Shown here piece after piece: positions 1 to 35,108 of a stretch of 64,000 nt of DNA. A program made the translations under genes and the position numbers. Origin of the DNA: Ilumatobacteraceae bacterium. GTDB taxonomy: Bacteria; Actinomycetota; Acidimicrobiia; Acidimicrobiales; Ilumatobacteraceae. The DNA is taken from the NCBI GenBank assembly GCA_040081465.1, contig JBEBGL010000007.1, positions 35,976 to 99,975 of the forward strand, in the 5' to 3' direction. How positions within the stretch are numbered: position 1 is the stretch's first letter; each line of letters begins with the position of its first letter. The notes under the pieces were generated by a model. That model saw only the letters and a list, made by a program, of their open reading frames with translations, was not told where the DNA came from and did not search any database.

Positions 1-690
1 GCGGTCGGCGATCAGGTCGAGCTGCGACTCGACGGCAAACCTCTGCCGCTCACCGTGCAAGGGGTGTTCCAGACCACCGACCTGATTCGCGCGTCGCGGA
101 TCTATCACCGCGAGACATTCGTGGGCAGCAGCATCCCAACTCCTGCTGGCATCGTGTCGCTCACCGCGGCCGACGGAGTTTCCGACAGTGATCTGCGTGA
201 AGCGGTTGGCGCGGTGATCGCCGACTACGGCATCGGCGAGCTGCAGAACAAGCGCGAGTTCATCGAAAGTCGAGCCGACATCGTCGATCGAAGTCTCTCG
301 TTTATCTACGGCCTGTTGTTCCTGTCGATCATCATCGCCACCTTCGGCATCGTGATCACCTTGCTGTTGGCGGTCTATGAGCGCCGACGCGAGACGGGTC
401 TGTTGCGGGCAGTCGGCATGAACAAGAGCCAGGTGCGCACGACCGTGCGCTGGGAGAGCGTGATCACCTCTATATATGGTGCCGCCGTCGGTGTGGCCAT
501 GGGCCTCGTACTCGGTTACGTGGTCATCGTCGCGCTGCGCGACCAGGGCTTGACTACCTATTCGGTGCCCGTGAGCAGCATCGTGTGGATCATGGTGTTG
601 GCCTTTATCGCTGGTGTGATCGCCGCGGTGGTGCCGGCCTGGCGAGCCACACGCCTTGGCATTCTCAGCGCAATCGCCGCCGACGGCTGA
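1..690 (+). CDS. ABC transporter permease, FtsX/MacB-like, C-terminal part (5' end outside window)
   Basis: The frame of ORF 55..690 is open back to nt 1. The C-terminal hydrophobic helices and the ERRRETGLLRAVGM segment are typical of the FtsX-like permease domain. Confidence 0.75.
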   Translation, partial: AVGDQVELRLDGKPLPLTVQGVFQTTDLIRASRIYHRETFVGSSIPTPAGIVSLTAADGVSDSDLREAVGAVIADYGIGELQNKREFIESRADIVDRSLSFIYGLLFLSIIIATFGIVITLLLAVYERRRETGLLRAVGMNKSQVRTTVRWESVITSIYGAAVGVAMGLVLGYVVIVALRDQGLTTYSVPVSSIVWIMVLAFIAGVIAAVVPAWRATRLGILSAIAADG

Positions 691-1131: not shown

Positions 1132-1764
1132 CTACTTGGGCTGCGGCAGTACCCGTAGGTACGGCTTCACCGTTGTCCAGCCTTGTGGGAACAACTTCTC
1201 GGCTTCCTCATTGGTAACGGCACCGCCGATAATCACGTCGTCGCCGTTCTTCCAGTTGACCGGAGTTGCCAGCTTGTACTTGGCAGTCAACTGCAGGCTG
1301 TCGATCACGCGCAAGATCTCATCGAAGTTGCGACCGGTGCTTGCCGGATAGGTGATGGTCAGCTTCACCTTCTTGTCGGGGCCAATCACGAAGACGGAAC
1401 GCACGGTGAGCGTGTCGTTCGCGTTCGGGTGGATCATGTCGTAGAGGTCGGCAACTTTGCGATCGGGGTCTCCAATCATCGGGAAGTTCACCGGCGTGCC
1501 TTGCGTCTCGCCAATGTCGCCTTCCCACTTCTCGTGCGACTCGACGCTGTCGACTGAGAGGCCGATGACTTTCACGTTGCGCTTGTCGAACTCGGGCTTG
1601 ATCTTCGCGACGTAACCCAACTCGGTGGTGCACACCGGCGTGAAGTCTTTGGGATGACTGAACAACACTCCCCACGAATCTCCCAGCCATTCGTGAAAGT
1701 TGATCTCGCCCTTTGTCGTGGGGGCGGTGAAGTCGGGCGCAATGTCTCCGAGGCGGACGGCCAT
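1132..1764 (-). CDS. 1-Cys peroxiredoxin (Prx6-type, AhpC/TSA family)
   Basis: DFTPVCTTELG peroxidatic Cys motif. 210 aa with the C-terminal extension typical of 1-Cys Prx. Confidence 0.9.
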   Translation of the reverse strand: MAVRLGDIAPDFTAPTTKGEINFHEWLGDSWGVLFSHPKDFTPVCTTELGYVAKIKPEFDKRNVKVIGLSVDSVESHEKWEGDIGETQGTPVNFPMIGDPDRKVADLYDMIHPNANDTLTVRSVFVIGPDKKVKLTITYPASTGRNFDEILRVIDSLQLTAKYKLATPVNWKNGDDVIIGGAVTNEEAEKLFPQGWTTVKPYLRVLPQPK

Positions 1765-3148: not shown

Positions 3149-3802
3149 CTAGGCAGCGATCTGACCATCAACCATTGCGATGGTGCGTTGGGCGATGTCG
3201 TCGACCCAGCGCCGGTCGTGAGTCGCGACGACGATTGTCGTGTCTGTGGCTCGCTCGTGCAACGTGCGCGTTAGTCGTGCAAGCTGTTCGTCGTCGAGAT
3301 GGGCGTCTGGCTCGTCGAGTACCAGAATGTCGGATCGGCCAGCGAGCGCTGCCGCAAGCGCGACGCGCCGACGCTGGCCGCCAGACAGCTTTCCGCAGCG
3401 CTCACTCGCAAGATCAACAAGGTCGACATCGTGCAGCGCGCGATGCACCGCGCCGCGCCGCACGCGTTCGTTCGGTGCCAGTTCACGCATGACGGCAATC
3501 AGATCGACGTGATCGAACACTGACAAGCGACGCGGCACACTGTCGTCCTGCGGCAGGTAACCCAAGCGGCGGCGAACGGCAGCAAGGTTGTTGTCCACAA
3601 CGTGTTCGCCGCCCACGACCAGCGTTCCCGCAGACGGCGCAGTCACCGTCGCAAGCAAGCGCAACAATGTTGTCTTGCCGCAACCGTTGGCGCCGATGAC
3701 AACAGTGATACCGGCACCGATCGTCAACGACGGAACGTGCAACTCGAAGCGAGGCCCGTTGCGAAAGGCGACGCCTTCGAGGTGGATGACTGGCGCCGTC
3801 AT
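3149..3802 (-). CDS. ABC transporter ATP-binding protein
   Basis: Walker A GANGCGKTT, signature LSGGQRRRV, Walker B ILVLDEP. The start is set at ATG 3802 (MTAPVIHLEG), which overlaps the upstream stop as ATGA. Confidence 0.85.
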   Translation of the reverse strand: MTAPVIHLEGVAFRNGPRFELHVPSLTIGAGITVVIGANGCGKTTLLRLLATVTAPSAGTLVVGGEHVVDNNLAAVRRRLGYLPQDDSVPRRLSVFDHVDLIAVMRELAPNERVRRGAVHRALHDVDLVDLASERCGKLSGGQRRRVALAAALAGRSDILVLDEPDAHLDDEQLARLTRTLHERATDTTIVVATHDRRWVDDIAQRTIAMVDGQIAA

Positions 3803-4500
3803 GCGTCGCTCCAACGGTCGAGTCTCCGACGGCCGATTACCAGCGTCACGGCCCCGGCAACCGCGACCACGGCGGCGCCCACTTGACCAATCACACCGAA
3901 CGGTGCGGTCGCGTCGTCGTTGATCTGTGCGACGAAGACGACCAGCGTCAGCCATCCCAATCCAACGCCGATTGCAGCGCGACGGACGCCGACATACGCG
4001 CCGACAGCGAGGGCCATCGATGTGGTTGCAAGCGCCGGCAGCATCCAAGCCAATCGCAGCCAGCCTTCGGTCGGCGAAGTCAGAACGGTCAAGAGCGAAA
4101 GCGCGGCGGCCGCGACGACCACTGTGACTGTGCGCAACAAGATCAAGCGCAGGCCCGAGAGCGGTGTTGCGACCGTCACTTCGTAGGCCCGGTCACTGTG
4201 CGGTCCGTACGCGAGTGCAACGCCAAGCACTGGAACGATCGGCGCGAGCGCGAGGAACACCGCGAGTTGGTCACCGGCTTCCCACTGTTTCGACCCGGCA
4301 CCGGCGGCCATCAGCAACACCAAGCCGACGGCGGCGAACCACGCCCATCGCAGTACTGGTGTCGCCGCCATCAGTCGCGCGGTTGGTTCCGGCACTCGCA
4401 AAGCCAGCAGCGCGCGTTCGAAGCGACTGCGCTTTGGCGCCGTGATCTCGCCCATGATCGCGTCGAGGTTGTTTGCCAAGCGCTCTTCGATCGTCCTCAT
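3799..4500 (-). CDS. Polytopic membrane protein coupled to the ECF sigma (putative anti-sigma or ABC-2-like permease)
   Basis: About 6 hydrophobic segments. It has 4-nt overlaps with both the sigma gene and the ATPase gene. I recognise no specific motif. Confidence 0.5.
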   Translation of the reverse strand: MRTIEERLANNLDAIMGEITAPKRSRFERALLALRVPEPTARLMAATPVLRWAWFAAVGLVLLMAAGAGSKQWEAGDQLAVFLALAPIVPVLGVALAYGPHSDRAYEVTVATPLSGLRLILLRTVTVVVAAAALSLLTVLTSPTEGWLRLAWMLPALATTSMALAVGAYVGVRRAAIGVGLGWLTLVVFVAQINDDATAPFGVIGQVGAAVVAVAGAVTLVIGRRRLDRWSDA

Positions 4501-5036
4501 TGGTTCACCTCTCGTAGCAGATCGCGGGCGCGTGAGAGTCGACTCTTAACCGTGCCTTGGGGAATGGCGAGCAGCACGGCGGCCTCGGCAGTCGTGAGTT
4601 CATCGATGTACACGGCGCTGACCACAGCGTGCAGTTCGGTCGGTAGTCGCGACAGCAAGTCGTACGTACGCGTGCCCGGCGCGGGTAGCGGCTCGGGTTC
4701 TGGCAGTTGCGCAACCGGAGTTGGGTGCGGGTGGCGCCGCAGATGATCGATCAGCCGACGCAGCGCAATCGACCACAGCCATGCGCCGACCTCGCCAGCT
4801 TCTGGGCGAAAGTTGCGAGCACTGCGCCACGCGCTTATGAACGTGTCTTGCAGCGCCGAGTCGACCAGGTCGTCGTCCGAGCATCGCGCCTGAAGCCGCA
4901 GCAGCAGCCAACGCGAGTGCCGGTGATATAGCGCCTCGAGCGCGTGCCGATCGCCCGCCGCCACGTCGGCGAGCAGCTCGGCGTCGGTGCGCTCGGGTGC
5001 TGCCACACACAACAGCGTGCCAGTTCCGGCGCTCAC
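4497..5036 (-). CDS. ECF-type RNA polymerase sigma-70 factor
   Basis: Region 2 (LVDSALQDTFISAWR) and region 4 HTH (LTTAEAAVLLAIPQGTVKSRLSRAR). Confidence 0.85.
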   Translation of the reverse strand: MSAGTGTLLCVAAPERTDAELLADVAAGDRHALEALYHRHSRWLLLRLQARCSDDDLVDSALQDTFISAWRSARNFRPEAGEVGAWLWSIALRRLIDHLRRHPHPTPVAQLPEPEPLPAPGTRTYDLLSRLPTELHAVVSAVYIDELTTAEAAVLLAIPQGTVKSRLSRARDLLREVNQ

Positions 5037-5992
5037 GCGTTGGCACGGCGACGCTGTTTGCGACTTTGCCGCCAGCCCCGCCAGTCTGAGCGAAGGCCGC
5101 GCATGGGAAATGCGAGTTGCTGCACGATGCCGTTGGGCATCTCAGTCGGGATGCCGTAGTGCTCTGGCCGCTGATCGCGAGGCATGCGGTAAGTGCCGAA
5201 CATGATGTCCCAAATCGGCAGGAAGATCGAGAAGTTGCTGTTGTGTGCTTCTTTGCGGAGCTCGTGATGCCAATGGTGGAACTCGGGTGTCATCACAACT
5301 GGCCACAGTGGGCGCAGTCGAAAGCGCACGTTGAGATGTGCGCCGAGGCCGACGAGAAACTGGATGATGGCCAGTGCACCCGTGATGCGGTTGTCGATGC
5401 CGGCAGCGACAAACAGCACGACGATCGGAATGATGAAGATTCCGTCGAATGGGTGCGCACGGAAGCCCGAGACCCAGTCGAGGTGGCGGGTGCTGTGGTG
5501 CACCTGGTGGAAACGCCAGAAGACGGGAACCTTGTGCGACCAACGGTGTGTCCAATACGCAAGGAAGTCGAACATCAGGAAGCCGCCGATGACCTGCGCG
5601 AGGGGCGGCAGCGAAGTGACAACTGGCCGCAGCAGCAAGCCGGGTATCCAGGCAAGTGACAAGAGGCCAAAAAAGAGTCCGACGACCAATCCGACGAACT
5701 GCAGTAATGGCTGCGTAGCGGCGTAGGCCAGATCGGTGCGCAACGCAAGGCGTCGGATGGGCACAGGGTGACGCCGGAAGAAACGTTCGAGCGGCCAAGA
5801 GACAACGAACAGCCCGAAGATGCCCGTCACCGCTTCGTTACCGACGAAGGCGCTGCCGATCGCGATCGCTGCCGCGATTGCTACGAGGATTGTGCCCCGA
5901 CGCGTGCGAGGGGCGGGTTGCCGTGTGTTGGCAGCGGGCGGTGGGAGTGCAACTGCAGGTGAAACGGGCGATGCAGTGAGGGTGAGGCTCAT
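5033..5992 (-). CDS. Fatty acid hydroxylase / sterol desaturase family membrane protein
   Basis: Three histidine boxes: HRWSH, HQVHH and HHWHH. Confidence 0.8.
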   Translation of the reverse strand: MSLTLTASPVSPAVALPPPAANTRQPAPRTRRGTILVAIAAAIAIGSAFVGNEAVTGIFGLFVVSWPLERFFRRHPVPIRRLALRTDLAYAATQPLLQFVGLVVGLFFGLLSLAWIPGLLLRPVVTSLPPLAQVIGGFLMFDFLAYWTHRWSHKVPVFWRFHQVHHSTRHLDWVSGFRAHPFDGIFIIPIVVLFVAAGIDNRITGALAIIQFLVGLGAHLNVRFRLRPLWPVVMTPEFHHWHHELRKEAHNSNFSIFLPIWDIMFGTYRMPRDQRPEHYGIPTEMPNGIVQQLAFPMRGLRSDWRGWRQSRKQRRRANA

Positions 5993-6025
5993 ACCCTCTC
6001 TATCGGGGCGAGGCGCCCGCTCGGT

Positions 6026-6937: not shown

Positions 6938-7459
6938 CTATTCGGCAGCGTCTTCGCCGCCCAGGAACTCGTCATGCCAAACGGGGTCGGGGTCGCAGCC
7001 AAGTGCAAGGCTGCGCACGCGATTGCCGTCGGTTAGCAGCACATCGAGCAGCAGTAGGCCCTGCGCCATGTGTGCTCGCCGAAGTGCGTGGTACCCGCGA
7101 CGATCAACGTCCGAGGGAGGGCCGTCGGGCACGTCGGGGTCGATGACGACGCTGATCGTTTGGCAGAACGGCGCTTCAACGCCGGGCAACTGCGCCACGC
7201 CGACCAAGAGGCCGACTTCGGCAGGTGGGTCGAGCAGCATCGCCGTAATGCGGCGGCGCTCGTCGAGAAGCACGAGAACTTCGTGGCACACCGGCATGTC
7301 GAAGATTTCGGTAGCCAACATCACCGCATCGGAGAACTCGGCGATGACGATCGGGTCGTCGGGACTTGGGTGGAAGATGCTCCACGAGTGATCGTCGGAC
7401 TGCAGTTGCAACGACTGCTGGCGACGACGAGGCAAGCGCAAACGCGGCTTGAACGACAT
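6938..7459 (-). CDS. Hypothetical protein
   Basis: ATG 7459 is preceded by a GGAGGAAG ribosome-binding site. No family is recognised. It has a faint RadC/JAB-like layout but lacks the metal motif. Confidence 0.45.
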   Translation of the reverse strand: MSFKPRLRLPRRRQQSLQLQSDDHSWSIFHPSPDDPIVIAEFSDAVMLATEIFDMPVCHEVLVLLDERRRITAMLLDPPAEVGLLVGVAQLPGVEAPFCQTISVVIDPDVPDGPPSDVDRRGYHALRRAHMAQGLLLLDVLLTDGNRVRSLALGCDPDPVWHDEFLGGEDAAE

Positions 7460-7538
7460 ACTTCCTCCAAGGACTGCATGGCCAAGAGCGACCAAAGCTG
7501 GTTCCGGGGGAAGCCGTTGCGGCGAGACTACCGGTGCG

Positions 7539-8003
7539 TTAAAGCAGTTCCGCTATGCGCGGTGCTAGTTCTTCCGGGGTTACCTTCGTGCCGAAGCGCT
7601 GCACGTTGCCTTCGCGGTCGACCAAGAACTTTTCGAAGTTCCACTTGATGTCTTCACCGTCGGTTTGCGCCTTCAGCCACGAGTACAGCTCGCAGGCACC
7701 TTCGCCATTGACTTCGATCTTGGAAAACATCGGGAAGGCAACGTTGTACTTAGTTTGGACGAACTTGAGAATGTCGGCTTCCGGGTCGGGTTCTTGCTTG
7801 CCGAACTGGTTGCACGGGAAACCCATCACGGCGAAGCCCGCAGCTTTGTTGTCTTCGTGGAGCGTACGCAGACCTGCGTACTGAGGAGTAGCGCCTCAAT
7901 AAGTGGCGACGTTGACGAGCAACAACACTTGGCCGCGATAGTCGGCCAGGTTCACGTCTTCGCCCGTGATCGACTTCATCGTGAGGTCGTACATGTCGCT
8001 CAT
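7539..8003 (-). CDS. Glutathione peroxidase with in-frame TGA (probable selenocysteine) at codon 36
   Basis: The frame from ATG 8003 reads ...LLLVNVATY-TGA-GATPQYAGL... and continues into tracked ORF 7539..7829 (FPCNQFG, WNFEKFLV motifs). The TGA at 7898..7896 aligns with Cys36 of the paralog. It is 154 codons long versus 155 for the paralog. Confidence 0.65.
7864..7881 (-). other. SECIS-like stem-loop downstream of the GPx UGA
   Basis: The mRNA forms GUACGC-AGGUCU-GCGUAC (perfect inverted repeat) starting 14 nt after the UGA. The loop contains GGU. Confidence 0.5.
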
Positions 8004-8470
8004 TAGATCACCTCGGCGATCGGGTCGGCCAGCTCTTCTGGCTTGGTGAGCGGGCTAAAGCGCTGCACCTTGCCCTCGCGATCGACGAGGAACTTTTCGA
8101 AGTTCCACTTGATGTCGCTGTCGTCGCCGCTCTCGGCCTTCAGCCACGAGTAGAGCTCGGCCTGGCCATCGCCGTTGACATCGATCTTGGAGAACATCGG
8201 AAAGTTGGCGCTGTACTTCGCTGTTGCGAACTCACAGACTTCGGCGTCGGTGCCGGGCTCTTGTGCGCCGAACTGATTGCACGGGAACGCCAAGACGCTA
8301 AAGCCGGCTGCCTTGTTCGCTTCGTGCAGCGCAACCAGACCCGTGTACTGGTCGGTGAGGCCGCATTGGCTCGCAACGTTGACGACCAGAGCCACCTTGC
8401 CCCGGTAGTCGGCGAGGTTCACCTGCTCGCCGGTAATCGACTTCATCGTCAGGTCATACATCGAGGTCAT
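8003..8470 (-). CDS. Glutathione peroxidase (Cys type)
   Basis: VNVASQCGLT active site, FPCNQFG and WNFEKFLVDREG motifs. 155 aa. Confidence 0.9.
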   Translation of the reverse strand: MTSMYDLTMKSITGEQVNLADYRGKVALVVNVASQCGLTDQYTGLVALHEANKAAGFSVLAFPCNQFGAQEPGTDAEVCEFATAKYSANFPMFSKIDVNGDGQAELYSWLKAESGDDSDIKWNFEKFLVDREGKVQRFSPLTKPEELADPIAEVI

Positions 8471-10863
8471 GTTTTCACCCTATCCCGCTCGGCAATCCGA
8501 CTGCCGAGCTCGAGCAACGGCCATGCGGCGACGATGACACCAGCTGCAAGCCCATACGCCCAACCCGCGGTTTGCGGCAGTTCGAACCAGTCGCGGCCCA
8601 AGGGAATGACAAACGCCAACGCGAAGAGTGCGGTCATCGCGATAACGAGGCCGCGTCGAAGGTGATTGAGCGGCCTCGCCACGCGGTAGAGGTTCATCAG
8701 CGCAACGGAGCCAGCGACGAGAACAGCGATCGTGCGCGCGTGGTCCGAGTCGATCGACTCGTCGAGTTGGGCGATCGCAAACACCGTCATCGTCGCTGCG
8801 GCAATGACGATGCCGGCTGGCACGGCACGGCCGAGCACGCGTGGCATGAACCCTTTCGCGACTCGTTGGTCGTTTGGTTCCAGCGCGAGGAAGAACGCGG
8901 GTACCCCAATCGTGAACCAACTGAGGATCGAGAGGTGGATCGGGCGCAATGGGTAAGCGAGCGCGAACACACCAGTGAGAATCGAAAGAAGGACTGAGTA
9001 GACGGTCTTTGCCAGAAACAGGCTGGCGACGCGTTCGATGTTGTTGATGACACGTCGACCTTCGCTAACGACAGCCGGCATCGCCGAGAAGTTGGAATCC
9101 ATCAGCACCAGTTGTGCGACACCACGTGTGGCTTCGCTTCCCGACGCCATTGCAATACCGCAATCACTGTCCTTGAGTGCCAGCACGTCGTTGACGCCAT
9201 CGCCGGTCATTGCGACGGTGTGGCCGCGAGCTTGCAGCGCTCTCACCATGGCTCGCTTCTGGTGCGGAGTCACGCGACCAAAGACTGTGCCGTTCTCGAT
9301 CGCGTCCGAGAATTCCTGGCTGTCCTCGTGCGGCAGCGTTGTCGCGTTGACGTTGTCTTCCCAGCCCACAAGTCCTGCGCGCTGAGCGACTGCGCCGACG
9401 GTCACGTTGTTGTCGCCGCTGATCACCTTCACGATCACGCCCTGATCGGCGAAGTACTTCAGTGTCGCCGGCGCATCGGCGCGCATGATGTCTTCCAGCA
9501 ACACGAGTGCGACGGGGCGCACCTTCGGCAGGTCGGGTTCTTCGCCGGTGAATGCGGTGTCGGTCGCAGCTAACACCAGTACCCGCTCGCCTTTCGCCGC
9601 GTGTCCTTCGACCTGCTCCTTCAGCGCGCCGGAGTACGCGTCGCCGAGCACGTTCTCCGGAGCGCCGAGTACCCAACTGCCACACGGCTTGCCTTCCTGC
9701 GTGGTGAAGGTCATGCCGCCCCACTTGCGGCCCGACGAGAACGGAACGCGGCCGGTGACGATCCATGTGGTCGGTTCGGTGAAGTGCGTGCCGAGCGCGG
9801 CGGTGGTTGCATTCGGGTCGGGGTCTAGTTGCGCGAGGGCGCACAACACGGGGTCGATAATGGCTCGATCTTCGCCGTCGATTGCATGCACGTCGGAGAG
9901 AGCGAGCGAACCCTCGGTGATGGTGCCGGTCTTGTCGGCGCAAAGCACATCGACACGCGCAAGCACTTCGATCGCTGGCAACTCTTGTACGAGGCAGCGT
10001 TGACGGGCGAGTCGCACTACGCCGACCGCGAACGCAACGCTGGTTAGAAGAACGAGACCCTCTGGCACCATTCCGACCAAGCCAGCGACGGTGCTGATGA
10101 TTGATTCCTGCCAGCCCTCGTGGCGGCGCAAGAACTGACTGCTAGCGAGTAGCAGGCCGACGGGGATGATGAGGTAGCCGACCCAGGTCACGATGCGGTT
10201 GATGTCGTTACGCAGCGGCGAGTTGACCAGCGTGAAGCGGCGAGCTTCTTCGGCGAGTTTGATCGCGTAGTTCTCGGCGCCGACCTTGGTGACCAACATT
10301 CGGCCCGTGCCAGCGATCACGGCGCTACCACTCAATACTCCGTCGCCCGGAGCCTTCGTAACAGCATCGGCTTCGCCCGTGAGATGCGACTCGTCGAGTT
10401 CGAGGTTCTCGCCGATCAGCACTATCCCGTCGGCGACGACCTGTGCACCTGAGCGCAACTCGGCCACATCATCGAGTACCAGTTCGTGTACCGCTAGCTC
10501 AACGACATTGCCGTCGCGCACGACATGGGCTTTGGGAGCGCTGATCACGCTCAGAGAATCGAGCACTCGCTTCGCGCGCAGTTCCTGCACGACACCGATG
10601 ACGCTGTTGGCGATGATGACGCCACCGAACAAAGCGTCCTTCGGTGAGCCGGCGGCGATGACCAAGGCGGCGAGAACACCGATGACGAGGTTGATTGGCG
10701 CCAGCACGTTGGCGCGAATGATCTGGCCAACGGTGCGGGTCGGCGCGGCCGGGATGGCGTTGGTTTGGCCACGGGCAACTCGCTGAGCGACTTCGGCGAC
10801 CGTCAAGCCGATCGACGGATCGGTCTGGGCCACGTTTGCTACATCAGCGGGGGAGTTGGTCAC
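8467..10863 (-). CDS. Cation-transporting P-type ATPase (HAD-IC family)
   Basis: Phosphorylation motif CADKTGTITEG, hinge motif MTGDGVNDVLALK, about 10 TM segments. 798 aa. Confidence 0.9.
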   Translation of the reverse strand: MTNSPADVANVAQTDPSIGLTVAEVAQRVARGQTNAIPAAPTRTVGQIIRANVLAPINLVIGVLAALVIAAGSPKDALFGGVIIANSVIGVVQELRAKRVLDSLSVISAPKAHVVRDGNVVELAVHELVLDDVAELRSGAQVVADGIVLIGENLELDESHLTGEADAVTKAPGDGVLSGSAVIAGTGRMLVTKVGAENYAIKLAEEARRFTLVNSPLRNDINRIVTWVGYLIIPVGLLLASSQFLRRHEGWQESIISTVAGLVGMVPEGLVLLTSVAFAVGVVRLARQRCLVQELPAIEVLARVDVLCADKTGTITEGSLALSDVHAIDGEDRAIIDPVLCALAQLDPDPNATTAALGTHFTEPTTWIVTGRVPFSSGRKWGGMTFTTQEGKPCGSWVLGAPENVLGDAYSGALKEQVEGHAAKGERVLVLAATDTAFTGEEPDLPKVRPVALVLLEDIMRADAPATLKYFADQGVIVKVISGDNNVTVGAVAQRAGLVGWEDNVNATTLPHEDSQEFSDAIENGTVFGRVTPHQKRAMVRALQARGHTVAMTGDGVNDVLALKDSDCGIAMASGSEATRGVAQLVLMDSNFSAMPAVVSEGRRVINNIERVASLFLAKTVYSVLLSILTGVFALAYPLRPIHLSILSWFTIGVPAFFLALEPNDQRVAKGFMPRVLGRAVPAGIVIAAATMTVFAIAQLDESIDSDHARTIAVLVAGSVALMNLYRVARPLNHLRRGLVIAMTALFALAFVIPLGRDWFELPQTAGWAYGLAAGVIVAAWPLLELGSRIAERDRVKT

Positions 10864-11309: not shown

Positions 11310-11382
11310 GCCCTTGTAGCTCAGTGGATAGAGCAACGGTTTCCTAAACCGCAGGTCGCATGTTCGATTCATGCCAAGGGCG
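11310..11382 (+). tRNA. tRNA-Arg (anticodon CCU)
   Basis: Manual cloverleaf: acceptor GCCCTTG/CAAGGGC, D-arm GCTC/GAGC, anticodon loop TTCCTAA, T-arm GCATG-TTCGATT-CATGC, discriminator G. No CCA is encoded. Confidence 0.85.
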
Positions 11383-11494
11383 CTGAGTAACTTCTTGCGC
11401 GCAGCGGCGCGAACGTACCGCGAACGTCGCGCACGCGGGGAGCCCTGCTTCTCGTCGCAACTCGTCTGGCCGAGAATGAATACGCTCCCGTATC

Positions 11495-14196: not shown

Positions 14197-15339
14197 TCAG
14201 CGCTCCTTTCGGTAGCGATGATGGCCACGGCGAGTAGGCGGGCTATTCATGCCATCGGCAGTCGCTTTCACCCAGTCACCACCGTCCATGGTTAGGAGCG
14301 GTCTGCGTGAGTGCGGAAGCTCCAGGTCGTCGAGGCGCCACACGTCATCTGGGTGACAGTAGATTTCTCGATGCGCCTGACTCGCGATCAGTTGATTTAG
14401 TTCGTCTACGGAGAACTCGAGCGGAGCATCTACGACGACTTCTTCAAGCCCTTCGTCATTGTGGAGAACTAGAGCCGTTGAACGGTTCATAGGAATCCAG
14501 ACCTCGTCCGCTGTCGCTAGCCCTAAACCCAACCCATGAGTAAGTGTCCCTGCACTTACGTCCATAACGACGGGGTTGTCACTGATCATCAGCCCTTCTT
14601 CCGGGAACCTCACGACCGTCACTTTTCGACCTAGGAAGTACGGCATGCTGTGCAGACCGACGTCCAACATCGTGCGCACCATTTCATTTTGGTGTGGAAC
14701 TACCTCCCATTGGTCCATGTTCGCAACAGCCTCCAGCAGCGCCTCAACGGCTAACTCATCCGGCTCAATTCCGATTTGGCGGAGATGCGCTCTCGCCGAA
14801 TCCTCGTCGGTGATCAGAGACAGTTGCATCTTAGTGAGACTGTCTGCGACCACCTCGAATTGTCGCCGCATCGTCGGCGTGCGCACTCGCTGCAGCGACG
14901 CCCATGTCGCTAACGCCATGCGATCCTCGCGCGTCGGCGGCCAGGGCTCTCCGGAGATGAAGTGGTCTAGGACTCGCACGAAATCGCCATCAACCTGCGC
15001 AAAGATTCGTTCAATAGCGACTGTCTCGCCGACGTCCTTGGCGATCGTCGTGTAGAGATCCTTCATGACGGCGACGGACTTGATCGGGAGAATCTCGCGA
15101 CTAATCGGTTCGTCTAACACAACTCGGACGATTTCGCCCTGCTTGGCAAAGCGTGCTTGGTACGAACGAGCAACGTAGTGGTGCAAGCGAGGATCACCCG
15201 CTGCGAGAGGCGTTCGTATTGCGCCAGCCAGCCTCTCGACGGTCGCACGACCTTCGGCTGACAGTTCGAGTAGCGGCCGTAAGTCAAACGGATATTGGTC
15301 TCCTGGACCTTCTTCAGCGGAAGCACCCAGGAACTGCAT
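14197..15339 (-). CDS. DUF4238-like protein
   Basis: The HHYVARSYQARF motif near the N-terminus resembles the DUF4238 signature (HHYVPxFYL). The start is set at MQFLGAS. Confidence 0.55.
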   Translation of the reverse strand: MQFLGASAEEGPGDQYPFDLRPLLELSAEGRATVERLAGAIRTPLAAGDPRLHHYVARSYQARFAKQGEIVRVVLDEPISREILPIKSVAVMKDLYTTIAKDVGETVAIERIFAQVDGDFVRVLDHFISGEPWPPTREDRMALATWASLQRVRTPTMRRQFEVVADSLTKMQLSLITDEDSARAHLRQIGIEPDELAVEALLEAVANMDQWEVVPHQNEMVRTMLDVGLHSMPYFLGRKVTVVRFPEEGLMISDNPVVMDVSAGTLTHGLGLGLATADEVWIPMNRSTALVLHNDEGLEEVVVDAPLEFSVDELNQLIASQAHREIYCHPDDVWRLDDLELPHSRRPLLTMDGGDWVKATADGMNSPPTRRGHHRYRKER

Positions 15340-15566
15340 GATGTCACGATAGAAGTGCGAAGGGCCGACTGAACAGAAGCACTCCAACGTTGGGACTGGG
15401 CGCCCATAGACTCGCCGAAACAGCGTGGTCCGCTGCGCAGACCTGCCATGAGATCGACCAACTGGGGACAAGCGACGCCTGATCGCGCGATTGGGCTATG
15501 TCGTCGGGGAATACCTCCCAGAGATCAGCGGTTGATTCGGCTCACCCGCCAATCCTTAGGACTCAA

Positions 15567-23315: not shown

Positions 23316-23777
23316 ATGGGTGAGCTGTTCGGAACACCCGCCCATCCGCTGCTAGTCCACATTCCGATTGTTCTGCTGCCGCTGCTATCGGTGATAGCGA
23401 TTGTGATGGCCGCAAAGCCAGCGTGGCGTAGTCGACTGACATGGCCGCTGTTGGCGGCGACGCTGATCACTGCCGCAGTGACCGTCTGGGCAACGCAGGC
23501 GGGCGAGCAACTTCAAGATGCGTTACAACCGGCGCTCGGTTCGAAGGGCGACCGGCACGCAGAGCTCGGCGATCAAACAGCGCTACTGGCAACCATCTTC
23601 TTCGTAGGCACGCTGGCGATGGCCGTGATGGACCGCTGGTTCAAGCGACTAACGCGTTCAGCAGTCGCGCTCGCGTGGGTCGTGGCAGTGGTCGGTGTTG
23701 TCACTGCGGTGTGGGTGATTCGGACAGGCCACGAAGGCGCCCGCATCACATGGGACGGCGTAAACGTCGGCGGCTGA
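23316..23777 (+). CDS. DUF2231-like membrane protein
   Basis: HPLLVHIPIVLLPL N-terminus and four TM segments. Confidence 0.55.
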   Translation: MGELFGTPAHPLLVHIPIVLLPLLSVIAIVMAAKPAWRSRLTWPLLAATLITAAVTVWATQAGEQLQDALQPALGSKGDRHAELGDQTALLATIFFVGTLAMAVMDRWFKRLTRSAVALAWVVAVVGVVTAVWVIRTGHEGARITWDGVNVGG

Positions 23778-23830
23778 CGAGCACCTGTGGGTCGGCGGTC
23801 CGCCAGATCAGTTCGTGGAATACTGAGCAC

Positions 23831-25048
23831 GTGGCAGATGACGCTGATATCGATATTGACGACGCAACCTTGGATGACTCCGAGCTCCCGTCAGAAGACG
23901 ACGACCAGCTATCGGAAGAGTCCGGTGAGCTGAGTGCGGCGGATGTCGAGCCACTTGTGCTCTACACCCTTGACTGGAGCGTTCAGTCTCTCCTCGAGCG
24001 AATCGGATCCACCTTCGACATCAGCCCAGCATTTCAGCGTCGGGACGCGTGGGACCGAACGCGCAAGAGCCTCTACATCGAGTCGCTTATGGCCGGCCTG
24101 CCAGTGCCACAAATCGTTCTAGCGGAAGATCGCGAATTGCGAGGTCGTTTCATCGTGCTGGATGGCAAGCAGCGACTCGTCACGATGAAGCAATTTGCGT
24201 CACCATCATTGACGTTTCCGTCGTTCCGGCTTCGGGGTCTCCAGTTCCTTCCCGAGCTGGACGGTAAGACGTTTGACGAGATCTTTAGCTCGATGGAAAC
24301 GAGCGAATACGCCGAGGCATTCCTAGCCCAACCAGTTCGGACAATCGTCGTCCGCAACTGGAAACGGGTCGAAGTGCTCTACCACATCTTCGTGCGACTG
24401 AATCAAGGAAGTGTTTCGCTCTCACCCCAGGAACTGCGGCAGGCCTTGTTCCCAGGACAGTTCACGCGTTGGATTGACGAAAGATCAGCGAAGAGCACGC
24501 CCATTCAGGGGGCGCGTCGGCTGAAACGTGAAGACTTTCGCATGCGTGACGCAGAGATGCTTCTGAGATACGTCGCGCTGGAAGATTCATTAGAGACATA
24601 CGGCGGAAACCTGCGATCGTTCTTGGACGACGCGTGCGCGACGGGTAACAAAAAGTGGCCAACTCGCGCGGACCATTACGCAGCGCTGGCAGATCGGTGT
24701 GAGCAGTCGATCGGCTCGGTCTTCGAGGTCTTCGGTGAAAATAGCTTCCTGCGATTCGACGGCGAACGCTACGTGCGTCGATTCAACATTGCAGTGTTTG
24801 ATGCTATGACCGTGGTTTTTTCCGATCCGGCTGTCGCAGCAATTCACCCCTTGCCGGCCGCCGAGCTACAAGCGGCTTACGAGCGCCTATCGATCGAAAA
24901 CGAGACATTCCATCGGTCCCTCATTTCGACGACGAAGACAACCTCCGCAACATTGGGACGCATCCTCTGGCTTGCGGAAGCGGTCGGAGCGGTGCTCGGA
25001 GTCAAGCCCGCGGTTATCGACCGAATTGACCAATCTAAAGTCAACTGA
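23831..25048 (+). CDS. DUF262 (ParB/Srx-fold, GmrSD N-terminal-like) domain protein
   Basis: FQRRDAW...YIESLMAGLPVPQIVL...VLDGKQRLVTM (DGQQR-type motif). The start is set at GTG 23831, where the composition drops. No DUF1524/HNH-like C-terminus is recognised. Confidence 0.75.
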   Translation: MADDADIDIDDATLDDSELPSEDDDQLSEESGELSAADVEPLVLYTLDWSVQSLLERIGSTFDISPAFQRRDAWDRTRKSLYIESLMAGLPVPQIVLAEDRELRGRFIVLDGKQRLVTMKQFASPSLTFPSFRLRGLQFLPELDGKTFDEIFSSMETSEYAEAFLAQPVRTIVVRNWKRVEVLYHIFVRLNQGSVSLSPQELRQALFPGQFTRWIDERSAKSTPIQGARRLKREDFRMRDAEMLLRYVALEDSLETYGGNLRSFLDDACATGNKKWPTRADHYAALADRCEQSIGSVFEVFGENSFLRFDGERYVRRFNIAVFDAMTVVFSDPAVAAIHPLPAAELQAAYERLSIENETFHRSLISTTKTTSATLGRILWLAEAVGAVLGVKPAVIDRIDQSKVN

Positions 25049-28051: not shown

Positions 28052-29461
28052 TTATTCGATCACAACTGCGTGCCCGCCGCGGCGGGCGTCTGCTCCGGCA
28101 CTCAGCTGGCCATCGTGCCATCCGATCATTTGCGCGGCACCGAAACCCTCCGGCCCAGGATTCTTGTTCAGCGCGTCCGGGTACATCGCCGCCAGCGCGT
28201 GACCTGGCTCGAGGGCGAGGTCGCCACCGAAACAGATCTTGAAGCGCGGCATGTCGATCGCAGCTTGCGGCGCGTGATTCTCCAACAGCGTCCGCAAGGT
28301 GAGTTGCACCTGCGTTTGCGGCTGCATCACTCCGCCGGCGACACCCACGACGAAACGCAGTGTGCCGTCCGCCCTCGTGATCACTCCTGGAATCGTCGTG
28401 TGCGGTGGCTTGCCTGGCCCGAGCGGCTTCGTCACCAGACGGAAAGTCGTCGCCCGATTATGAATCGGGCCGCCCAGTGCCTTCACTCCCAGATGCGAAC
28501 CGAAGTCTCCGAACACCGATGTGATCAGCGACGCACCGCGACCTTCGTGATCGACGGCAGCGATGAATGTTGTGTCGCCTTTGGCCGGGCTGGGTGCACC
28601 GGTACTCACGTTGCGCGGATCGAAGCCCGCTTCGGCCATGCCCGCGTCGACGGCGTGATACACCGCATCCCAATCGATCTCGCTGTCGGCAGAAATGTCG
28701 CGTAGCGCGGCCAATACAGCCGGACCCTGCGTCGGCGATGGCATCTGCCACATGCGGTGCCCGGCGAAGTCGACGTAGTCGGGGATAACCGTCGTCGTGT
28801 GGTGCGCAGCCAGATCGGCGCGCGACATGTAACCGCCCCCCGCCTCAACGGCCTGCACGATCGCGTCAGCCAGTGCGCCGGTCAGGATTGCGGCTGAACC
28901 CTCTGCTGCGATCAGCGACAATGCGTCGGCGAGATCGGGGTTAGTGACGGTTGCGCCTTCAATGACCGCCTTGCCATCCGGCCAATACAGCGGTCCCAGC
29001 ACCGGTTCGTTCGCAAGTTCGGCGGTTGCTTTCCTCGCCGCGATCGCGAGAGTGCTGCGTACCTCGAATCCGTCGCGAGCGAATCGCACCGCTGGCGCAA
29101 GTGCGTCGCGCAGGCTGATCGTTCCGAACTGCTTCAGCGCCGACTCGAGCAGCGCAACAGCGCCGGGGGGCGTCGCTGTTTTCGCTCCTCGAGATGGCAC
29201 GTTGTCGAGGCCATCGGCCGCGAGTGCTTCGCGGGTCAGGCCTGCTGGCACTGCACCGGATCCGTCCAATCCGATCGGTGGCCCGGTGTGGTTGTGCACG
29301 AACATGAATCCGTCGCCGCCGATTCCGCACGACTGCGGCTCGACCACGTACAACACGAATGCCGCAGTGACCGCAGCATCGATCGCGTTGCCGCCAGCAC
29401 GGATGACGTCGGCCGCGGCCTTTGTTGCTCGTGGGTCGCTGGTGGCGACGGCGGCGGTCAC
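28052..29461 (-). CDS. Gamma-glutamyltransferase family protein
   Basis: GGNAIDAAV and the autoprocessing-site pattern GDTTFIAAVD. 469 aa. Confidence 0.85.
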   Translation of the reverse strand: MTAAVATSDPRATKAAADVIRAGGNAIDAAVTAAFVLYVVEPQSCGIGGDGFMFVHNHTGPPIGLDGSGAVPAGLTREALAADGLDNVPSRGAKTATPPGAVALLESALKQFGTISLRDALAPAVRFARDGFEVRSTLAIAARKATAELANEPVLGPLYWPDGKAVIEGATVTNPDLADALSLIAAEGSAAILTGALADAIVQAVEAGGGYMSRADLAAHHTTTVIPDYVDFAGHRMWQMPSPTQGPAVLAALRDISADSEIDWDAVYHAVDAGMAEAGFDPRNVSTGAPSPAKGDTTFIAAVDHEGRGASLITSVFGDFGSHLGVKALGGPIHNRATTFRLVTKPLGPGKPPHTTIPGVITRADGTLRFVVGVAGGVMQPQTQVQLTLRTLLENHAPQAAIDMPRFKICFGGDLALEPGHALAAMYPDALNKNPGPEGFGAAQMIGWHDGQLSAGADARRGGHAVVIE

Positions 29462-32970: not shown

Positions 32971-35108
32971 TGCAAAAGAAGGCAGACCTGCAGGTCGACG
33001 AACAACTTGTCGACTTTGTGGAGAATGAAGTCCTCCCGGCGATAGGCCTCGAGCCGTTACGGTTCTGGTCGGGCCTTAGCGGTTTGATTGCTGCGATGTC
33101 GGCGCGCAACCGGGAGTTGCTCGCCGAGCGAGACTCGCTGCAATCGTCGATCGATTCGTGGCACCGAGCCCAAGTCGGCCGTCCGCACGATGCAGATGCC
33201 TACCGGGCGTTCCTTTCGGAGATTGGTTACCTCCACACGGATGGCGAGCCGTTCAGCATCGAAACCACGAATGTCGATCCCGAGATCTCGATGATCGCCG
33301 GTCCACAGTTGGTGGTACCTGTCACCAACGCGCGCTACGCGTTGAACGCAGCCAACGCCCGTTGGGGTTCGCTCTACGACGCGGTTTACGGAACCGATGT
33401 GCTGGGTGTCTCGCCATCCGCCGGACCCTACGACCGCGTGCGCGGCGACCGGGTCATCGCATGGGTGCGCCGCTTCCTTGACGACGTCGTGCCGTTGCAA
33501 GGCGCGTCGCACGTTGACATCACGAGTTACACCGTCGATGGTTCGCGACTGGTCGCGCACCTTGACGATCATCCGCACGAGTTGCGCGATGACTCCGCGT
33601 TCGTTGGACATCGGGGAGCTGCCGACGACCCATCCGCGATCGTGCTCGTTCATCACGGTTTGCACATCGAGCTGATCATTGACCGCACAACCGAGGTTGG
33701 CGCGGCCGACCGCGCTGGAGTGTCCGACGTGTTGCTCGAATCAGCCGTCACCACGATCATCGACTTCGAGGACTCCGTCGCCACGGTCAGCGTTGCGGAG
33801 AAGGTCGATGCGTATCGCAACTGGCTCGGGCTGATGGCCGGATCGCTGACAGCGTCGGTCGCTAAGGACGGTTCGTCTTTCGTCCGCCGCCTGAACTCAG
33901 ACCGGACTGCGATCGGTGCCGACGGATCTACTGCGCAGCTGCGCGGCCGATCGCTTCTGCTCTGTCGCAACGTCGGTTTGCACATGCAGACGGATGCCGT
34001 TCGTGACAGCGACGGCAATCCGATCTTCGAGGGCTTGCTCGACGCGATGCTGACCGTGGCGATTGCAATGGTCGACCTTTGCCGAGCGTCGACGGACGCG
34101 AACTCGCCAGCGAGGTCGATCTACGTGGTCAAGCCGAAACTACATGGCCCCGACGAAGTGTCGTTCGCTGTCGAAACGTTCGCTCAGGTTGAGGCCACGC
34201 TCGGCTTGCCTGCGGACACCGTCAAGATCGGCATCATGGACGAAGAACGGCGCACCACCGTCAACCTGATGGAGTGCATCCGCCGAGCCTCGTCGCGAGT
34301 TGTCCTTATCAACACCGGCTTCCTCGATCGAACTGGAGACGAGATCCACACTGCGATGGAAGCTGGCCCCATGGTGCCTAAGCCCGACATGAAGAATGCG
34401 GTCTGGATCAAGGCGTACGAGAACCGCAACGTCGACGTCGGTCTTGCGTGCGGCTTCCCCGGTCGAGCCCAGATTGGTAAAGGGATGTGGGCTGCCCCCG
34501 ACCTGATGGCCGACATGCTCACGCAGAAGATTGCTCACCTCGAAGCTGGCGCCAATTGTGCGTGGGTGCCTTCACCTACAGCCGCGACGTTGCACGCAAC
34601 GCACTATCACCGCGTCGATGTGTTCGCGCGGCAGGACCAGTTACGTTCGCGGCCGATGGCGTCGCTCGACGATGTGCTGAAGTTGCCGTTGATGACTGGG
34701 GCGCCCGCCGATCGCGAGCGCGAGGTCGACAACAACGTCCAGAGCATTCTCGGCTACGTGGTGCGTTGGGTCGATCAAGGCGTGGGCTGCTCGAAGGTTC
34801 CCGACATCAACAATGTGGCGTTGATGGAGGATCGTGCAACCTGCCGTATCTCGTCGCAGCATGTCGCCAACTGGCTGCGCCACGGTGTTGTGACGCGTGC
34901 ACAGGTGGAAACGTCGCTGTGCCGAATGGCCGAGGTTGTCGATCGTCAGAACGCGGGTGATCCGCGATATCGCGCGATGGCACCGAGGTTCGACGGTGTC
35001 GCGTTTCGCGCTGCAAGCAGCCTGATCTTCGACGGCTGCAGTCAGCCGAACGGCTACATCGAACCGATCCTGATCGCTCATCGGCGAGAGCAGCTCCAAT
35101 GCACTTAG
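32970..35108 (+). CDS. glcB: Malate synthase G
   Basis: About 712 aa from GTG 32970 (VQKKADLQVDEQLVDFVENEVLP). It has the typical MSG N-terminus and internal IGIMDEERRTTVNL and WVPSPTAATLHA motifs. Confidence 0.9.
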   Translation: MQKKADLQVDEQLVDFVENEVLPAIGLEPLRFWSGLSGLIAAMSARNRELLAERDSLQSSIDSWHRAQVGRPHDADAYRAFLSEIGYLHTDGEPFSIETTNVDPEISMIAGPQLVVPVTNARYALNAANARWGSLYDAVYGTDVLGVSPSAGPYDRVRGDRVIAWVRRFLDDVVPLQGASHVDITSYTVDGSRLVAHLDDHPHELRDDSAFVGHRGAADDPSAIVLVHHGLHIELIIDRTTEVGAADRAGVSDVLLESAVTTIIDFEDSVATVSVAEKVDAYRNWLGLMAGSLTASVAKDGSSFVRRLNSDRTAIGADGSTAQLRGRSLLLCRNVGLHMQTDAVRDSDGNPIFEGLLDAMLTVAIAMVDLCRASTDANSPARSIYVVKPKLHGPDEVSFAVETFAQVEATLGLPADTVKIGIMDEERRTTVNLMECIRRASSRVVLINTGFLDRTGDEIHTAMEAGPMVPKPDMKNAVWIKAYENRNVDVGLACGFPGRAQIGKGMWAAPDLMADMLTQKIAHLEAGANCAWVPSPTAATLHATHYHRVDVFARQDQLRSRPMASLDDVLKLPLMTGAPADREREVDNNVQSILGYVVRWVDQGVGCSKVPDINNVALMEDRATCRISSQHVANWLRHGVVTRAQVETSLCRMAEVVDRQNAGDPRYRAMAPRFDGVAFRAASSLIFDGCSQPNGYIEPILIAHRREQLQCT

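Follow-up and report, generated by a model that had tools for sequence, protein, structure and literature searches.

A predicted selenocysteine-containing glutathione peroxidase with a SECIS hairpin inside its coding sequence in an Ilumatobacteraceae genome

A 64,000-nucleotide stretch of an Ilumatobacteraceae bacterium (assembly GCA_040081465.1, contig JBEBGL010000007.1, positions 35,976 to 99,975; hereafter the window, whose own numbering is used throughout) was analyzed for a minus-strand gene of the glutathione peroxidase (GPx) family in which a TGA occupies the codon of the catalytic residue. Judged from comparative sequence data, this codon (UGA-36) is very probably read as selenocysteine (Sec) in a SelB-mediated manner, directed by a hairpin within the open reading frame (ORF), and would yield a GPx4-type peroxidase. 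A TGA at the catalytic codon was found in 69 genes in all, 20 from reference genomes including the window and 49 from metagenomes, and these genes represent at least four phyla. The hairpin, a predicted bacterial selenocysteine insertion sequence (SECIS), accompanied the TGA in nearly all of them and was absent from the homologues that encode cysteine (Cys).

The UGA codon and the hairpin downstream

The following features were identified in the gene:

7539..8003, minus strand: complete Sec-GPx gene, 154 codons plus TAA, by direct reading and Pfam GSHPx
7896..7898, minus strand: in-frame UGA, putative selenocysteine codon (codon 36), at the position of the catalytic Cys in 93 Cys homologues
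7864..7881, minus strand: predicted bacterial SECIS hairpin within the ORF, 7881..7876 paired with 7869..7864 as the stem, apical AGGUCU 7875..7870
7539..7829, minus strand: 96-amino-acid ORF from the mechanical ORF listing, the C-terminal part of the Sec-GPx frame
8008..8014, minus strand: Shine-Dalgarno-like GAGGTGA of putative function, 4 nt upstream of ATG 8003 and within the 3' end of the Cys paralog

By direct reading, the frame opens at ATG 8003..8001, continues as MSDMYDLTMKSITGEDVNLADYRGQVLLLVNVATY-TGA-GATPQYAGLRTLHEDNKAAGFAVMGFPCNQFG..., and ends at TAA 7541..7539, with TGA 7898..7896 (codon 36) as the sole internal stop of its 154 codons. An earlier note, made from the letters of the window alone, had described this frame as open into the ORF at 7539..7829, and its coordinates agreed with the re-reading of the minus strand. 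The shorter ORF begins at an internal GTG of the Sec-GPx frame and is no separate gene. The same note had matched the TGA to Cys36 in the NVASQCG motif of the adjoining paralog, where codon 36 was indeed read as Cys. When Cys was substituted at position 36 of the read-through protein, the Pfam GSHPx family (PF00255) was matched over residues 4-111 and covered the UGA (E = 5.6e-40). The context of codon 36 is U-G-A-T, which corresponds to the UxxT motif, and the FPCNQFG and KWNFEKFLV motifs are intact in the downstream frame.

A perfect stem-loop had been claimed 14 nt past the UGA, and the palindrome GTACGC-AGGTCT-GCGTAC was found at 7881..7864, separated from the UGA by 7895..7882. Its apical loop is either AGGUCU (6 nt, on a 6-bp stem) or, if the A-U pair closes, a GGUC tetraloop (4 nt, on a 7-bp stem). 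The minimum free energy (MFE) was -8.5 kcal/mol for 18 nt and -9.9 kcal/mol for 24 nt, and the spacing from the UGA to the loop was 21 nt. The constraints on bacterial SECIS elements published in a 2026 review of prokaryotic selenoproteomes include an apical loop of 3-9 nt with an upper stem of 4-16 bp (PMC13188914, Fig. 2 legend), a G within the first two loop positions that is usually followed by G or U, a distance of 16-37 nt from the UGA to the loop, and an MFE of at most -7.5 kcal/mol (PMC13188914). The hairpin at 7864..7881 agreed with all four of these (loop and stem size, loop G, spacing, and MFE). Its loop starts with GGU, and the variant loops CGGGUU and AGGCUU described below likewise agree with the requirement for a loop G. 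The corresponding sequence of the Cys paralog is CAGTACACGGGTCTGGTTGCGCTG, with a folding energy of just -2.4 kcal/mol (versus -9.9 kcal/mol for the Sec copy), in line with the earlier statement that the paralog has no comparable palindrome there.

The apex had also been described as identical to that of the SECIS in E. coli fdhF, which is an experimentally established SelB-binding hairpin. The fdhF element, TGACACGGCCCATCGGTTGCAGGTCTGCACC..., was verified against E. coli genomes, where it had at least 99% identity to fdhF in 5413 E. coli records, with three E. coli records at 100% identity among the matches listed. The likeness was upheld by this comparison: the 10-nt apex GCAGGUCUGC (GCAGGTCTGC), including the GGUC loop, is identical and lies in the same reading frame (Ala-Gly-Leu), and both hairpins are located within the ORF, immediately 3' of the UGA. 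The two elements differ in that the window loop is one codon (3 nt) more distant from the UGA, with GGU at +25..27 versus +22..24, and in that the host protein is unrelated to formate dehydrogenase H.

A crude scan of the window identified five in-frame TGAs with coding-like flanks, and only TGA 7898..7896 had a bacterial SECIS-like hairpin. The other four were ordinary same-frame gene boundaries that had no such hairpin. The decamer GCAGGTCTGC occurred in three copies in the window (0.21 expected). The extra copies, at 15437..15446 and 32982..32991 (both minus strand), were rejected as SECIS candidates, as neither had a TGA within 70-80 nt upstream or an extended stem. They were judged to be chance matches, although the excess itself is unexplained. 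One of them sits opposite or between plus-strand genes. A weak Rfam match to Hammerhead_II near the hairpin was on the opposite strand and was dismissed as meaningless, and an RNAalifold mini-helix, in which the UGA is paired to the CA that precedes the stem, depended on invariant coding positions.

Sec genes, Cys homologues, and the tandem paralog

Two samples of homologues were compared. In the reference sample, one genome per species was scanned and 80 GPx loci were returned; the metagenome-contig sample, independent of the reference set, included 49 TGA genes and 31 Cys genes. The TGA was at the catalytic codon in 19 reference-genome GPx loci, which came from the Acidimicrobiia (Ilumatobacteraceae), the Kofleriaceae, Nannocystaceae, and other Myxococcota, the Halieaceae (Pseudomonadales), and one Planctomycetota metagenome-assembled genome. 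In 18 of the reference loci (locus L012 escaped the search pattern and was omitted) and in the window gene, all read end to end, the TGA was the sole in-frame stop and the frame remained intact for 118-123 codons to a normal C-terminus. When the window gene was compared with its three nearest relatives (81-92% amino acid identity), the ratio of nonsynonymous to synonymous substitution rates (dN/dS) was 0.08-0.15 after the TGA, at dS 0.5-1.0, and was the same before it, indicating that the part after the TGA is selected as protein. Hence, the intact frames and the low dN/dS gave no sign of the decay in the downstream half of orthologues for which the earlier note had proposed to look.

All 19 reference TGA loci carried CAGTA[C/T]GCAGGTCTGCGT[A/G]C at the same distance from the UGA, and the 61 reference Cys genes (60 loci, with the window Cys copy included) varied freely at the hairpin position. 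Over both samples, all six core stem pairs were present in 68 of the 69 Sec genes and in none of the 93 Cys genes, for which the maximum was five. TGA was therefore accompanied by the hairpin, and TGC or TGT by its absence, which is the pattern that had been proposed as a check. The codons of the element (CAG TAC GCA GGT CTG CGT, codons +5..+10) are not those that GC-rich genomes prefer. In the Sec genes, the third-position entropy was 0 bits at five of them and 0.29 bits at TAC, whereas most four-fold codons on either side had 1.4-1.9 bits. In the Cys genes, the codons at the position of the element had 1.0-1.9 bits. The alignments thus showed the hairpin to be under a constraint at the RNA level that was confined to TGA genes.

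The exact apex was found in 39 of the 49 metagenome TGA genes, and the ten variants retained the helix. In four of these, the stem reads GTACAC...GTGT[A/G]C, a double change from G-C to A-U at the cost of two amino acid replacements (Ala to Thr, Arg to Cys). Two of the ten showed a G.U intermediate and one had a single mismatch. The loop was altered in five of the ten with a G kept near its start: four had CGGGUU alone, and L086 combined CGGGUU with the double stem change. Additionally, L107, another of the double-change variants, has the loop AGGCUU. Over 66 distinct Sec sequences, 98.7% of the stem cells were paired, and the stem pair 22-31 was G-C in 61, G.U in one, and A-U in four. A further stem change from U-A to U.G, observed in 15 sequences, coincided with a change from Thr to Ala.

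The Sec genes formed one clade in a neighbor-joining tree that carries no bootstrap support. Since they form one clade, the raw association of TGA with the stem does not consist of independent data points, and the Cys genes nested within the clade are the informative contrasts. Three such genes were observed beside different Sec neighbors (the window paralog, L102, and L137), and none of the three had the hairpin. In L102 (TGC at about 3106), the peptide QYAGLR was kept while its codons had drifted to GCG GGA CTG CGC, which indicates that the protein does not need the codons of the element and that only UGA-containing mRNAs do. In L137 (TGT at about 3106), a relic GCAGGTCT was retained with broken stem flanks. 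Both elements look like decaying former SECIS elements. On the topology of this tree, Sec appears to have been replaced by Cys at least three times in the clade, with a loss of the hairpin each time.

The window paralog and the gene that precedes it are as follows:

8003..8470, minus strand: tandem Cys-GPx paralog, 155 amino acids, Cys36 in NVASQCG, no hairpin, Pfam GSHPx E = 2.4e-41
8467..10863, minus strand: P-type cation ATPase gene, Pfam E1-E2_ATPase, Hydrolase, and Cation_ATPase_C, NCBIfam P-type ATPase subfamily

The TAA of the Cys paralog overlaps the Sec-GPx ATG (TAATG), and the ATG of the Cys paralog overlaps the ATPase TGA (ATGA). The adjacency of ATPase and GPx was conserved in L001 (ATPase at 3629..6004) and L003, where the ATPase gene also overlaps the GPx start (ATGA), which suggests a conserved ATPase-GPx operon. 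In the window, the ATPase, Cys-GPx, and Sec-GPx genes apparently form a translationally coupled operon, with the ATPase gene first and Sec-GPx last, as far as gene order and overlaps indicate. The Cys paralog was absent from L001-L003, where a single Sec-GPx gene abuts the ATPase gene, and both window copies aligned to the single gene of L001 and L003, indicating that the window holds a tandem duplicate. Among the 161 GPx loci, many of which have short flanks, the tandem Cys/Sec pair was found only in the window genome, and the metagenome scan identified neither a close relative of the Cys paralog (best match 67%) nor a second tandem pair. The two copies share 68% identity, with dS 1.13 and dN/dS 0.21, and have thus both been maintained for long. 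From its position in the tree, the Cys copy looks like a secondary Sec-to-Cys derivative of the tandem duplicate. The duplicate may either be older than the split from L001-L003, with a later loss there, or have been acquired.

The nearest solved structures were the GPx4-type monomeric enzymes 2v1m, 3cmi, and 2p5q (E = 1e-32 to 1e-41). The catalytic tetrad was present at the positions aligned with 2v1m, namely U36, the Gln of FPCNQFG, and W121-N122 of KWNFEKF. The position of the resolving Cys82 of yeast Hyr1 is occupied by Val in the Sec copy and Ala in the Cys copy, so neither copy is of the atypical 2-Cys, thioredoxin-dependent GPx type (Hyr1/Gpx3) by this residue. The Cys paralog contains a Cys in EVCEF (residues about 76-80), three residues before the Hyr1 Cys82 position, where the Sec copy reads ILKFV. 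The Sec copy contains Cys104 in GACELY, which is common to many but not all Sec orthologues. These differing Cys positions may point to an altered catalytic mechanism once Sec had been replaced by Cys.

Decoding of UGA-36 and rival explanations

In the proposed mechanism, the in-ORF hairpin would deliver selenocysteine to UGA-36 through SelB, which would compete there with release factor 2, after which the remaining 118 codons would be translated. The product would be a 154-residue GPx4-type homologue with Sec as its peroxidatic residue. Such a mechanism implies that SelB binds the hairpin, that selenium is incorporated, and that selA, selB, selC, and selD are probably encoded elsewhere in the genome. 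TGA terminates 21 of the 38 Pfam-supported ORFs of the window and is thus the main ordinary stop codon; the genetic code is accordingly the standard one, under which UGA-36 needs a special mechanism.

Several observations weigh against Sec decoding. The 61 nt that follow the UGA had an ordinary folding energy when compared with shuffled sequences (z = -0.39, with z = -0.80 for the Cys region), so that the hairpin alone is not beyond chance and its significance comes from the comparative data. Only one stem pair was doubly compensated, possibly through one or two events, and with a single covarying pair the structural case comes mainly from invariance and wobble-compatible changes. No SECIS family was matched in Rfam, in which bacterial SECIS elements are poorly represented, either at the gathering threshold over the whole window or at E <= 10 over 7780..7960. 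The fdhF SECIS has a bulged U in its upper stem and a spacing of 11 nt between the UGA and the minimal hairpin; unlike it, the window stem is perfect (6-7 bp), has no bulge, and begins 14 nt after the UGA. ARAGORN identified no tRNA-Sec in the window or in the 19 Sec loci, and the sole tRNA of the window is tRNA-Arg(CCU). Similarly, SelA, SelB, and SelD were not identified by Pfam among about 47 ORFs of the window, and a tblastn search with E. coli SelA, SelB, and SelD sequences returned no matches in the window and 161 loci (1.2 Mb), which is a weak negative. As 64 kb is a small part of a multi-megabase genome, the lack of Sec machinery in the window is expected. In the Actinomarinales, another order of the Acidimicrobiia, selA, selB, selC, and selD are reported for all 84 complete genomes (preprint 10.64898/2026.04.03.716425). 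The Sec trait thus exists within the class, which gives context, not proof, for the window genome.

That no machinery gene was identified in the window also bears on the possibility that the gene is a silent relic, conserved as a selenoprotein gene in the lineage and undecoded in the window genome (e.g., after a recent loss of the Sec machinery), with the Cys copy having taken over. The tandem Cys copy, unique to this genome among the 161 loci, and the repeated replacement of Sec by Cys in the clade would be in keeping with such a history. Against it, the window gene has retained an intact frame, UxxT motif, set of catalytic residues, and SECIS, its dN/dS relative to the nearest relatives was 0.08-0.10 (dS about 0.6) and the window sequence showed no surplus of changes, and the paralogs are old enough (dS 1.13) to have coexisted for long without decay of the Sec copy. 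A silent relic is accordingly considered improbable. The earlier note had weighed a nonsense-mutated pseudogene, in which a single TGC-to-TGA change in a Cys-GPx gene is followed by a palindrome that arose by chance. Only one substitution is needed for this, the hairpin energy is unremarkable on its own, and an intact Cys paralog adjoins the gene. The explanation is nonetheless effectively refuted and is given a very small probability, as the same TGA was found in 68 other genes of several phyla (18 of which were read end to end and were full-length), purifying selection is strong past the TGA, the hairpin has frozen synonymous sites in TGA genes only, and TGA is tightly associated with the stem. 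The judgment of that note that the full frame, the intact motifs, and the hairpin favor Sec decoding over decay was therefore borne out, with both motifs present and a low dN/dS.

A sequencing or assembly error, with TGC as the true codon, is hardly credible. The Logan assembly of run SRR29156678 (possibly the same sample) was 100% identical over window positions 9462..7864, TGA included, so that the base call is not isolated, and in 68 independent assemblies this codon is likewise TGA and is accompanied by the hairpin. The Logan contig (L081) stops at 7864, precisely where the hairpin palindrome has its 3' end, probably because the de Bruijn graph broke at the palindrome. Equally remote is a read-through of the UGA by near-cognate Trp or Cys decoding, with the hairpin as a generic stimulator. 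In other systems, read-through can be promoted by a stem-loop that follows the stop codon. In contrast, only Cys or Sec would be functional at the peroxidatic position, the hairpin shares its apex with a known SelB-binding loop, and TGA serves as the main ordinary stop codon in the window genome. Sec decoding of UGA-36 is thus the preferred reading, and the earlier proposal of a probable selenoprotein that had been split by ORF calling was strongly supported by the comparative data on TGA and hairpin.

Neighboring genes and relation to known systems

Directly downstream of Sec-GPx, the ORF at 6938..7495 (minus strand) had no Pfam or NCBIfam match. Its likely true start is ATG 7459, after GGAGGAAG, and its position was conserved in L001-L003 by DNA alignment. 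Two other ORFs belong to thiol or peroxide metabolism: a 1-Cys peroxiredoxin at 1132..1764 (minus strand; AhpC-TSA and 1-cysPrx_C) and a gamma-glutamyltranspeptidase at 28052..29461 (minus strand). A possible link to defense or mobile elements was noted for an ORF with a GmrSD_N restriction-endonuclease domain at 23441..25048 (plus strand) and for a DUF4238 ORF at 14197..15471 (minus strand), near which the tRNA-Arg(CCU) is located at 11310..11383. The 730-amino-acid ORF at 60464..62656 (plus strand) combines MFS_1 (residues 41-317) with an ABC_tran ATPase (residues 513-655), and represents an unusual fusion unless the mechanical ORF listing has run two genes together.

Bacterial GPx-like selenoproteins (PF00255, UxxT) have been listed as "predicted with high confidence", with WP_010957027.1 as an example (PMC13188914), and were first reported in reference 12 of that paper. 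Five Sec-GPx sequences were described from Sargasso Sea data (PMC1088965), with UxxT as their motif and a bacterial SECIS in which the apical G is conserved. Bacterial Sec-GPx has therefore been a predicted family since 2004-2005, and the window gene is a further member that shares every family feature tested. It has in common with the published examples the Pfam family, Sec at the peroxidatic position of UxxT, an in-ORF SECIS just past the UGA, a G in the apical loop, and the widespread presence of Cys homologues; it differs in its origin from an Ilumatobacteraceae-like member of the Acidimicrobiia, the published examples having been compared by their description. As far as found, neither PMC1088965 nor PMC13188914 describes the near-invariance of the SECIS across phyla with the apex of fdhF, the three Sec-to-Cys controls, or the overlapping Cys/Sec tandem.

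Animal GPx4 and GPx1 share with the window protein the fold and the catalytic residues (Sec, Gln, and Trp-Asn). In contrast to the SECIS in the coding sequence of the window gene, their SECIS is in the 3'-UTR, has another architecture, and acts with SBP2/EFSec. Among prokaryotes, Methanococcus keeps Sec and Cys isoforms of hydrogenase and formate dehydrogenase in separate operons under selenium-dependent transcriptional regulation. That system resembles the window pair in that Sec and Cys paralogs of one enzyme are kept in one genome, and differs in that the window genes overlap (TAATG) in one apparent operon, so any selenium dependence would act at the decoding of the UGA. A more speculative proposal, which is considered possible but rather doubtful, is that the GPx ORF and its near-invariant fdhF-like SECIS constitute a self-contained cassette that was spread by horizontal transfer among four or more phyla, as it would be workable with any E. 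coli-type SelB. In the window genome, the tandem would then be a selenium-gated pair of isoenzymes from one mRNA, with the Cys enzyme always made and the more active Sec enzyme made only in the presence of Sec-tRNA(Sec).

What is known of bacterial selenoproteins is not altered by these results, and a specialist would not be surprised by them. The gene is a clear example of a selenoprotein gene broken by standard gene callers, into a 96-amino-acid fragment in the ORF listing or, in the public gene call on the Logan contig, a 35-residue N-terminal GSHPx stub, which shows how such genes get lost in annotation. The three Sec-to-Cys reversions, one of which kept the amino acids without the codons, provide natural controls for the constraint on an in-ORF SECIS. 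Since the apex is identical to that of fdhF and near-invariant across phyla, E. coli might be able to produce the selenoprotein from this gene with no engineering of the SECIS. Additionally, the tandem pair provides a small and testable setting for a comparison of Sec with Cys isoenzymes of one operon, and the predicted gene adds the Ilumatobacteraceae-like Acidimicrobiia to the lineages with Sec-GPx.

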